DNA of 28,998 nucleotides from NCBI GenBank assembly GCA_029856105.1, contig JAHQWH010000135.1, forward strand, positions 1 through 28,998, in the 5' to 3' direction. Each line of letters begins with the position of its first letter. The stretch's first letter is position 1. This DNA is from Promethearchaeia archaeon (GTDB lineage: Archaea; Asgardarchaeota; Lokiarchaeia; Sigyniarchaeales; SOKP01). Shown here in pieces: positions 8,774-28,998 of this stretch. The notes under the pieces are model-generated. The model was not told the origin of the DNA and did not search any database. It saw only the letters and a program-made list of their open reading frames with translations. A program made the translations under genes and the position numbers.

Positions 8774-10177
8774 TTAAATTTTTGATTTTTTTTCTTGATG
8801 AATTTCGTCGCGTTTTTCTTTAATTTGTTTTAAATATTTACCATCTAAAGGGTAAAAATATATCGCAATAATAGCGATTAACAGAGATATTACGGGATAA
8901 ATGACCATTAAACTCCTTAGTTCAAATTCTGGGATGGTAATCGGATTGAATTTAGCCCAATCAGCAATAAGAAACACAGGTCCTATAATTAGAAAAACAA
9001 ACACAGTCGCAAATCGTTGAAAGAAGATGTTAATGCCGTAATATCCCCCTTCACGTCGTGTCCCTGTTTTTACTTCGTCTTCGTCCACAATGTCTGCAAT
9101 AATAATATCAATTATGTATAAAGAGCCAGCTAAACCTATTCCAATTAAGAAGAATACTATAAATGCTACTACTTCCATACCAGGCCCTAGAAAAAATAGC
9201 GGAATTAGAGTTATAATCCAAATTGTCATTGAAATTAACCACGATTTTCTCGGACCTAATTTTTGAACCAATGGTTTCCAAAGTATTGTCATAAAAAGTC
9301 CAGCAGATAAAAAACTAACGCCTAACAAAAGCGAGATCATGAAAGGGTCTTCAAAACCTAAAATAAATTCACCATAAAGGGGAGCTATCACAGGAATCAT
9401 CCCATAAACAAACCAATTAGCGATTTCTGCGGGAATGTAACGCATGAAGCTCTTGTTTTTAAAACTATATTTTAAAGTGTTGAAAAAATTAGGAGCACCT
9501 TTATAATCCTTGCGAAATTCTGTTCTTCCTTTTGGTGATAATATTAAGAAAAGTCCGCCAGCAATAATGACAATTATGGCAACAACTATTCCATAAGTAG
9601 GATATTCTCCAGGTAATGGGCTTGTATAGCTAGAAATAAACATGCCAGGCAAAAGGAAGGCTGCAAGCAATCCAACAATAGCAAAAAGTTGTCTTACATT
9701 ATTACCTTTCGCCCGTTCTTCCTCAGTTATAAAAATTTCTGGGTACAAAGAAGTATAATTTATGTCATACATTGTAAAAAATAATTCAAATACAATGATT
9801 ATAATCATAAAATATATGAAATTTATAGTAGGATCGGTGATACCTATTGAAGCTAGTGGTGTAAACAATAGAATCATAATCACTGCTATCGGAATTAAAG
9901 AAATCATGATCCAAGGGAATCTACGCCCCCATCTAGTATGAGTTTTATCCGATAAATATCCGATAAATGTGTCGTTAAAACTATTCCATATCGACCATAT
10001 GATAAAACCAAGAGAAATTAACACCAAGTTGATTCCAACGACAGCAAAGTAAAACGTAAAAGTCAAAAATGTAAATGCTTGGTAAGAGGCTATATCCGCG
10101 ATTTGGCCAATACTGTAGGAAACTGCGCGTTTATACGAAAATTTTGTTTTTTCAATTCTTTTTTCAGTTTCGCTCAT
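8774..10177 (-). CDS. MFS transporter, GPH (MelB/MFS_2) family; paralog of 5631..7022
   Basis: WNSFNDTFIGYLSDKTHTRWGRRFPW and ADIVDEDEVKTGTRREGGYYG motifs; clearly alignable to the upstream paralog. Confidence 0.93.
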   Translation of the reverse strand: MSETEKRIEKTKFSYKRAVSYSIGQIADIASYQAFTFLTFTFYFAVVGINLVLISLGFIIWSIWNSFNDTFIGYLSDKTHTRWGRRFPWIMISLIPIAVIMILLFTPLASIGITDPTINFIYFMIIIIVFELFFTMYDINYTSLYPEIFITEEERAKGNNVRQLFAIVGLLAAFLLPGMFISSYTSPLPGEYPTYGIVVAIIVIIAGGLFLILSPKGRTEFRKDYKGAPNFFNTLKYSFKNKSFMRYIPAEIANWFVYGMIPVIAPLYGEFILGFEDPFMISLLLGVSFLSAGLFMTILWKPLVQKLGPRKSWLISMTIWIITLIPLFFLGPGMEVVAFIVFFLIGIGLAGSLYIIDIIIADIVDEDEVKTGTRREGGYYGINIFFQRFATVFVFLIIGPVFLIADWAKFNPITIPEFELRSLMVIYPVISLLIAIIAIYFYPLDGKYLKQIKEKRDEIHQEKKSKI

Positions 10178-27623: not shown

Positions 27624-28541
27624 TTGAAGATGAATGAAATCAATTCCATAGATAATAATATTGATGATTCTGAAGAATCAGTAAGACGAGCTTTTGATTT
27701 TTTATTAAACCACTCAAGAATACCCGAAGCATTCTCAAAAGAAGAATTTAAAAGGTTTGCTAACTATCAAAATCCAAAGAATTTTAATACTTATTTTTCA
27801 AAAAAGTTTAGACATTTATTAGAAAAAGCACCAAATGAAAAAAATAAATATTTAGTAGCTGGTGTATTCAGGAAATACTCTAGATGGCATAAATTTAGAA
27901 GATATTACTCACAAAGTTCTAAGATTAAGGTGAATTATATCGAAGAATACTATGAAAAACTAATGATTTTTGATTTTTTTATACCTTTAACTAATGAAAA
28001 TGATTTGAGATCATCATTAGATGAACTTTTTTACAGTGATACTGTGAAACTTATGTTAAATAAAATTCTTAAAAATGAACTTAATATAGTATTTCCGATA
28101 AAAAAAAAGGAATCTAAAGAACAATATATCGAGAGAATATGTGAGTGGATCTCTAAGAGATTTGGGGGATATTCAATTGGAACTGCTAGAGGTAGATTTA
28201 AAATAGATGATCTAAAGACTTTTGCTGAAGTAGCACTGCAAAAAACAAAAGGTTTTGATTATTTAATTGATGAAACAACTGCGATTGTACATTTTATTTT
28301 TCATGTTGGGCCCCCTATTAAAAATCAGGTTTTATTTAATATTGAGCAATTTCAAGAAGATTTAGATGAACATAATGATCAAAAAGAGATTGAATTAGAA
28401 GCTAATCAAATAAGATTTATTTTTAAGAATTTATTTGTTAGAAATATACTTGATTTAGTCAATGGTGAAGATGAGATTTGGATGCTTGAAAGTGGTATTA
28501 GAAATTGTTTATATATTTGGAAAAATGAAAACTTTCGATAA
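27624..28541 (+). CDS. Hypothetical protein (AT-rich orphan, divergent from dam)
   Basis: 305-aa uninterrupted ORF with no motif confidently recognised. Confidence 0.75.
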   Translation: MKMNEINSIDNNIDDSEESVRRAFDFLLNHSRIPEAFSKEEFKRFANYQNPKNFNTYFSKKFRHLLEKAPNEKNKYLVAGVFRKYSRWHKFRRYYSQSSKIKVNYIEEYYEKLMIFDFFIPLTNENDLRSSLDELFYSDTVKLMLNKILKNELNIVFPIKKKESKEQYIERICEWISKRFGGYSIGTARGRFKIDDLKTFAEVALQKTKGFDYLIDETTAIVHFIFHVGPPIKNQVLFNIEQFQEDLDEHNDQKEIELEANQIRFIFKNLFVRNILDLVNGEDEIWMLESGIRNCLYIWKNENFR

Positions 28542-28721
28542 AATATACTTTTCGATAATCTCATATTAAGTGAAAATTAAATTATTGTATAGAAGATCTT
28601 AAAATAGTTGACAAAATAAAGAAAAAAAAAGATAAAAATTAGTATTAATCGATCTTTTGAGCTCATTTATCTATTAAAACCTCCCCATTAAAACTAATCA
28701 GAAAGTAAATATTTTACTCAG

Positions 28722-28739
28722 AAAAAAAAGAAAAAAAAA
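28722..28739 (-). terminator. Oligo-U archaeal terminator downstream of the histone gene
   Basis: Minus strand T9-C-T8 run about 25 nt after the TAG at 28764-28766. Confidence 0.55.
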
Positions 28740-28763
28740 TAAAGATTTTAATAATTCAGTTCT

Positions 28764-28998
28764 CTACCTTGTAGCCTTACGAATATCCGCAGCAGTTACA
28801 CGTTTGCACAAATTCCCGAATTGGAAAATATTTTGCGCTTGTCCGCTTTGGTTATTTTAATAGCCTCTTTAGTTGCGTCTGCGGCTGTTTTTTCGAGAAA
28901 ACCGATAAGTTTATCTAGAGCATCGGCAGCCACTAAATCAGCGCCTTCTTTTTTCATCAATCGCCGAATTGGTGCTTTAGCAATATAACTATCAGATT
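28764..28998 (-). CDS. Archaeal histone (HMf-like fold), split by a 29-nt intron-like insertion; exon 1 >28998..28833, exon 2 28803..28764; 5' end outside the window
   Basis: Hand translation: SDSYIAKAPIRRLMKKEGADLVAADALDKLIGFLEKTAADATKEAIKITKADKRK then, after removing 29 nt, RVTAADIRKATR*. This matches archaeal histone alpha1-L1-alpha2-L2-alpha3 (APIRR...AKRK..TAADI). Confidence 0.92.
28804..28832 (-). other. Putative 29-nt bulge-helix-bulge/loop (EndA-type) intron in histone mRNA
   Basis: RNA ...AAGCGC-AA|AAUAUUUUCCAAUUCGGGAAUUUGUGC-AA|ACGU.... A central 4-bp helix GCGC/GUGC is followed on each strand by AAA; there is an intron stem AUUUUC/GGGAAU; cutting after the 2nd bulge nucleotide on both strands restores the frame. 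Confidence 0.75.

Follow-up and report, generated by a model that had tools for sequence, protein, structure and literature searches.

A frame-breaking 29-nt insert in a Lokiarchaeia histone gene as a probable mRNA intron of the bulge-helix-bulge type

At the end of the window, by which the whole analysed stretch of 28,998 nucleotides (nt) is meant, a histone gene on the minus strand is broken by 29 nt that shift its reading frame, and the question arises of how a complete histone could still be made from it. The window is the entire contig C136 of a Lokiarchaeia genome, referred to here as G000. The most probable answer, to which a probability of about 0.9 is assigned, is that the insert at 28804-28832 is an intron, cut from the histone mRNA by the tRNA splicing endonuclease EndA and followed by joining of the exons by RtcB. 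Such a functional intron had been proposed in an original prediction made from the sequence alone, and it is now supported by covarying inserts at the same site in relatives, selection on the second exon, a joined contig from a run labelled as metatranscriptome, the presence of the enzyme genes, and other interrupted genes.

The interrupted gene and its product

The gene and its interruption comprise the following features.

28833-28998, minus strand: exon 1 of the Lys-tailed histone, with its first 25 coding nt outside the window, on contig C57
28804-28832, minus strand: 29-nt candidate intron, in phase 2 of a Lys codon in KRK, causing a frameshift if retained; recovered by a motif-free census and left out in sequencing run X20
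28764-28803, minus strand: exon 2, with the end of loop L2, helix alpha3 and the true stop TAG
28796-28798, minus strand: premature stop for the unspliced message, whose 75-residue product is on record as P0142

Without splicing, the frame runs through KADKRK, continues as IFSNSGICANV and stops at 28796-28798, and the missing histone tail, RVTAADIRKATR, is found 29 nt downstream in a different frame. Deletion of 28804-28832 restores KRKRVT and leaves a frame that is open and ends in KRKRVTAADIRKATR, in full agreement with the coordinates and frames originally given. The start codon lies 25 nt past the window end on C57, which overlaps the window contig at 100% over 127 nt, and the full histone has 76 residues with a short Lys-rich tail. 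The 67 residues of its spliced product that the window encodes all agree (100%) with the uninterrupted ortholog L006 (genome G005), and this identical intact ortholog matches the archaeal histone family (PF00808) at E 2e-10. The relatives carry the name Promethearchaeota, which equals Lokiarchaeia, and the earlier guess of an Asgard lineage was right. The tail is composed of Lys, Pro and Ala, and within the genus the histone is almost unchanged (76-100% identity).

The insert is not an assembly artefact, a possibility rejected because the European Nucleotide Archive assembly L359 is identical over 1199 nt with the insert included, and because L360, a strain with two exon differences, carries the same insert. 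In exon 2, 7-9 of 37 nt separate the gene from its closest intronless counterparts and 5 nt from the intron-bearing allele L348, with no amino acid change in either comparison; among intron carriers, 303 synonymous versus 27 non-synonymous pairwise codon differences are counted. This near-exclusively synonymous change indicates that the part behind the frameshift is still translated under purifying selection, as expected from the earlier description of both exons as undecayed. Continued translation counts against a pseudogene, and alone it does not separate splicing from ribosomal bypassing.

The fold, its relatives and the enzymes

The insert and its exon flanks can form a bulge-helix-bulge (BHB) motif with the following elements.

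28835-28838, minus strand: exon strand of the central helix, GCGC, 4 base pairs (bp)
28832-28834, minus strand: 5' bulge AAA, with a predicted cut after the second base (rule from PMC2738675)
28810-28831, minus strand: intron hairpin, weak (-3.1 kcal/mol), with compensatory changes in L348 and L104/L349
28806-28809, minus strand: intron strand of the central helix, GUGC
28803-28805, minus strand: 3' bulge or loop AAA, with a predicted cut after the second base

All four positions of the helix between GCGC (28838-28835) and GUGC (28809-28806) are paired, and AAA follows each strand. A fully paired helix with a closed hairpin, at any equivalent placement, appeared 8 times among 5000 shuffled inserts and 9 times among 5000 29-mers drawn at random from the genome (<0.2%); the motif at the insert exceeds chance. 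The free energy of the whole fold is not unusual relative to shuffles (z -0.96), so that folding energy alone gives no support. On the exon side an internal loop takes the place of a clean bulge, the intron side starts with A-U and U/U, and strict flanking helices on both sides, as in the canonical hBHBh' form, are absent. A 5-nt repeat, GCAAA, at both insert ends permits six equivalent placements, and the cut sites are therefore not fixed by this allele alone; the allele L350 has a single possible placement, which coincides with the site given by the BHB rule.

In a genus sample chosen by taxonomy (42 genomes, with the gene matched in 35), an insert is carried by two genomes, G000 and G002, and the gene is intact in 33, making the intron patchy rather than conserved. 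Together with further alleles from metagenome and protein searches, nine distinct same-site alleles were obtained, with inserts of 29-30 nt in three unrelated intron sequence families; the eight related alleles differ from the one in the window in insert sequence and share its junction. Across the nine alleles, 94.4% of the central-helix cells are paired, and compensatory changes occur at two of its four pairs, tracking synonymous Arg codons: exon CGC is matched by the intron ends GUGC or GUGU, and exon AGA by UCUU or UCUC. At the register set by the rule, pairing over the entire structure reaches 86%, and sliding by one to three columns lowers it to 27-44%. The same-site inserts and covarying stems that the original prediction had envisaged in orthologs were thus found.

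Other sites of the same gene are also affected in relatives, where inserts of 30-32 nt lie at two further regions (after YIAK and in SAAT). Those of L190, L111, L112 and L114 (twice) fit the rule with all four helix pairs and that of L192 with three by inspection, that is, five of six have a complete helix. The histone allele at L114:102-363 carries a BHB insert in each of these two regions, 30 and 31 nt long, the first of them displaced by 1 nt in the upstream direction relative to L190 and L192. In L350 (399-1046) and L351, two histone copies stand in tandem, the first intact and the second altered at its N-terminus and interrupted by a stop-free BHB insert of 30 nt; the second copy belongs to a protein cluster of 14 (P0061), and if its message stayed unspliced, loop L2 of the histone would be ten residues longer. 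A truncated 47-residue histone product ending in YLEKGL (P0139, three contigs) suggests that another site of insertion lies around codon 45.

The enzymes needed for splicing, two EndA subunits (alpha on contig C107, beta on C12) and RtcB (on C191), are all encoded in the genome. The EndA alpha subunit is closest to the catalytic alpha subunit of Aeropyrum pernix (E 3e-34), with the crenarchaeal loop aligned gap-free and Lys58 opposite Lys44, and the second subunit lacks the catalytic His. Since this loop and its lysine confer cutting of relaxed motifs (PMC3241643), the host possesses, at the sequence level, both a broad-specificity endonuclease and a ligase, which would act on the histone RNA. 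According to the proposed mechanism, the transcript would fold into a relaxed bulge-helix-bulge or bulge-helix-loop (BHL) structure, the two-subunit EndA would cut each 3-nt bulge behind its second base, and RtcB would join the exons to yield the 76-residue histone; an unspliced message would give the 75-residue product without helix alpha3. ARAGORN returned 23 tRNA predictions genome-wide, 16 of them with introns; several anticodons are implausible and some calls look wrong, and multi-intron tRNAs were probably missed or miscalled.

The joined form and competing explanations

A 254-nt contig of run X20 matches both exons at 28764-28998 with no mismatch (206/206 nt) and lacks exactly the 29 nt. 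The library is labelled metatranscriptomic, and the tool label of the run is 'RNA? (probably DNA)'. Run X5, a DNA run of the same sample, contains this strain without mismatch at 27728-27880 and 27935-28256, and has no contig of it over the histone gene. The insert is present in all three readable DNA copies of the species, and the closest DNA gene without an intron, among those compared, is 186/204 identical; for the X20 contig, spliced mRNA is a likelier source than an intronless allele. Runs X19 and X20 cover only the histone part of the searched stretch, which is not counted as a sign of RNA, and run X3 (0.98 of words) is uninformative on the insert, with no contig of this strain. A search of the recorded runs gave no RNA run that contains the stretch, and this outcome is not counted as evidence.

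Several points weigh against splicing and should be considered together. The joined form expected by the original prediction exists as an exact contig in a run labelled metatranscriptomic, but it is a single assembled contig from a run flagged as probably DNA, and this flag, together with the silence of X5 over the gene, makes an intronless allele possible. At minimum energy the RNA takes a slipped form, with the 5' AAA paired to UUU; of the relaxed BHB/BHL fold originally described, the central 4-bp helix, the AAA segments and the cut sites predicted by the rule stand, but the structure lies 4.3 kcal/mol above the slipped form, indicating that this allele is a relaxed substrate, similar to the cbf5 introns. 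In the covariation shuffle test the observed pattern was reached in 0 of 500 cases, and the sequences are related, so such counts are not probabilities. Furthermore, the same genome encodes two other intact histones, 45-47% identical to the interrupted one, which is therefore not proven essential.

Among the rival explanations, the one that survives best, itself highly improbable, is a dead allele produced by recent insertion of a hairpin with a 5-nt target repeat, the X20 contig being an intact sister allele in DNA. The GCAAA repeat at both ends, the 33 of 35 genus genomes without the intron, the flag on X20 and the other histones would all agree with it, but exon 2 is undecayed, with five synonymous changes and no amino acid change relative to L348, and diverged relatives retain homologous inserts whose hairpins show compensatory changes. 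The repeat, which might be taken as the footprint of a miniature transposon, is not present in L350 or L131, no second genomic copy of the histone insert was found, and the single-copy genes uL11 and Elf1 hold similar inserts.

Ribosomal bypassing of the T4 gene 60 or mitochondrial byps type, in which the ribosome would hop over the 29-nt hairpin on uncut RNA, is a still fainter prospect. Matching AAA take-off and landing codons flank a hairpin in this allele, and bypassing would also account for the selection on exon 2; across the nine same-site alleles, however, take-off and landing codons are the same in only two, and no stop follows the take-off codon (the next codons are ATA, CTC or AAT), although this is a usual feature. 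Bypassing also predicts neither an exon-intron helix covarying at the EndA register nor a joined contig. Equally slim is the chance that the insert is removed by another route, either a different nuclease or reversible DNA excision between short repeats, which would suit a relaxed motif with a competing fold and a joined form that may be DNA, but which is opposed by boundaries that obey the EndA rule in the repeat-free, single-placement alleles L350 and L190 and by the matching broad-specificity EndA type encoded.

Interrupted genes elsewhere, intron history and known systems

Splicing of the histone mRNA by EndA and RtcB would not be an isolated event in this genome. A motif-free census compared about 1,400 orthologous open reading frames (384,000 residues) of genomes G018, G017 and G002 with G000. 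In G000 it picked up the insert of the histone along with six others of 30-33 nt that break the frame, and in G018 it found three. All 10 frame-breaking census inserts of 29-33 nt have a 3-4-bp helix and a hairpin at the site given by the rule, the one in the alpha/beta hydrolase gene fitting only after a shift by 3 nt, which puts Tyr where the relative has Phe. Among the 26 in-frame inserts without a stop, one alone has a fully paired helix, and its hairpin is nearly absent. Outside the census, two inserts were found in uL11 and one in radA. The further inserts in G000 are located as follows.

C39:31937-31908: insert in the thiolase gene
C191:9161-9190, 37095-37127 and 74089-74120: inserts in the genes for an FGGY kinase, Elf1 and an alpha/beta hydrolase
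C83:234-264: insert in the phosphofructokinase gene
C74:8114-8084: insert in an epimerase gene
C16:9747-9778 and 9829-9857: two inserts in uL11
C45:30690-30660: insert in radA

The total is at least 10 inserts of 29-33 nt in nine genes of one genome (nine inserts beyond that of the histone, in eight other genes), a lower bound because the comparison covered part of the genome and cannot reveal an insert that the reference has as well. The interrupted genes include the single-copy Elf1, phosphofructokinase and uL11, and conserved motifs are split, namely GGGD-CPG in phosphofructokinase, the zinc ribbon of Elf1 and IGGN-IVAH in RadA. The overlooked class of mRNA introns read as frameshifts, for which a scan of the genome's genes had been suggested, is supported by this count. 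Four other frame-breaking census matches (21, 34, 58 and 87 nt) were rejected, as they lie within the first 13 query codons and look like mis-set starts. A de novo genome scan combining motif search and joining of reading frames gave 82,380 raw and 222 filtered candidates and was too noisy to count; a DNA-level pilot over 110 aligned kb did not find a coding BHB insert, and a census of paralogs within the genome found none. In G018, where the histone is intact, the three inserts, all of BHB type, stop-containing and 30-33 nt long, lie at L282:17452-17423, L265:3476-3508 and L247:7345-7313, one of which splits the GHIDHGKS P-loop of a translation-factor-like GTPase.

The history of the histone introns was addressed with a tree based on a short alignment of the 201-nt spliced sequence, for which the intron families were set before the first tree and the intronless rows were picked after seeing it. 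Intron carriers do not form one clade (p-AU 0.003), and neither do two intron families (0.002 and 0.005), a pattern that fits repeated loss or exchange by recombination and points to no particular donor or mechanism of arrival. In this lineage the inserts of 29-33 nt have probably been gained, lost or exchanged repeatedly as tolerated passengers. A bolder proposal, that these are actively spreading mRNA introns of Lokiarchaeia and that the balance between the BHB and slipped folds is a regulated switch of histone supply in the manner of XBP1/HAC1, is doubtful; spread between alleles finds some support in the departure of the intron families from the exon tree, and regulation by splicing would have nothing behind it beyond the two competing folds.

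The closest known counterpart is the cbf5 pre-mRNA intron of Desulfurococcales and Sulfolobales (Yokobori 2009, PMC2738675; review PMC10485636). Introns in other protein genes were only predicted in the 2009 paper (PMC2738675), and the 2023 review names two archaeal mRNAs spliced by the tRNA endonuclease, cbf5 and HVO_1309 (PMC10485636). Both the cbf5 intron and the histone insert are short segments in coding sequence, with a relaxed BHB, cuts (predicted in the histone) after the second bulge base, and a host whose two-subunit EndA bears the crenarchaeal loop. The cbf5 case, however, concerns one gene and one inherited site with cDNA proof, whereas the Asgard case is known from sequence, involves histone inserts at three to four sites across relatives and at least 10 inserts in nine genes, and shows inserts of 29-33 nt that are patchy and do not follow the exon tree. 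In Haloferax volcanii, as described in the review (PMC10485636), the tRNA splicing endonuclease likewise cuts an mRNA, that of HVO_1309, and RNA-seq shows the spliced form, but this is a single case with an alpha2 enzyme type.

Asgard tRNA introns (bioRxiv 10.64898/2026.10.13.758758) share the motif and the enzyme, with repeated gains at BHB-capable sites, but that preprint treats tRNA genes only, and the word 'mRNA' appears nowhere in its text. T4 gene 60 and the byps of Magnusiomyces also consist of short hairpin inserts that break the frames of working genes, but those require matched take-off and landing codons and a stall codon, a combination absent across the alleles here. A literature search for mRNA introns or splicing in Asgard archaea (Promethearchaeum, Lokiarchaeota) found none, most subscription journals being outside its reach; the mechanism is known, and the lineage, the target gene and the patchy multi-gene distribution are absent from the searchable literature. 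If spliced, these transcripts would indicate that cutting and rejoining of mRNA by EndA and RtcB is routine in the archaea nearest to eukaryotes, with a bearing on how protein-coding introns became tolerated and, possibly, on where RtcB-dependent splicing of mRNAs such as XBP1 came from. Since databases hold truncated products (P0142, P0138 and others), Asgard gene calls need correcting.

The surroundings of the histone gene contain one further element of its transcript.

28720-28743, minus strand: U-rich tract, a probable terminator of archaeal type, seen in the sequence and with its function inferred

A bacterial-type terminator scan did not flag this tract. The adjoining 305-residue open reading frame at 27624-28541 (plus strand) has no Pfam match, and different genes stand beside the histone in relatives (a D12-class methyltransferase, a transposase and a leucine-rich-repeat protein), indicating a variable 3' flank. 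Upstream of the histone, a TrmB-family gene is conserved among relatives.
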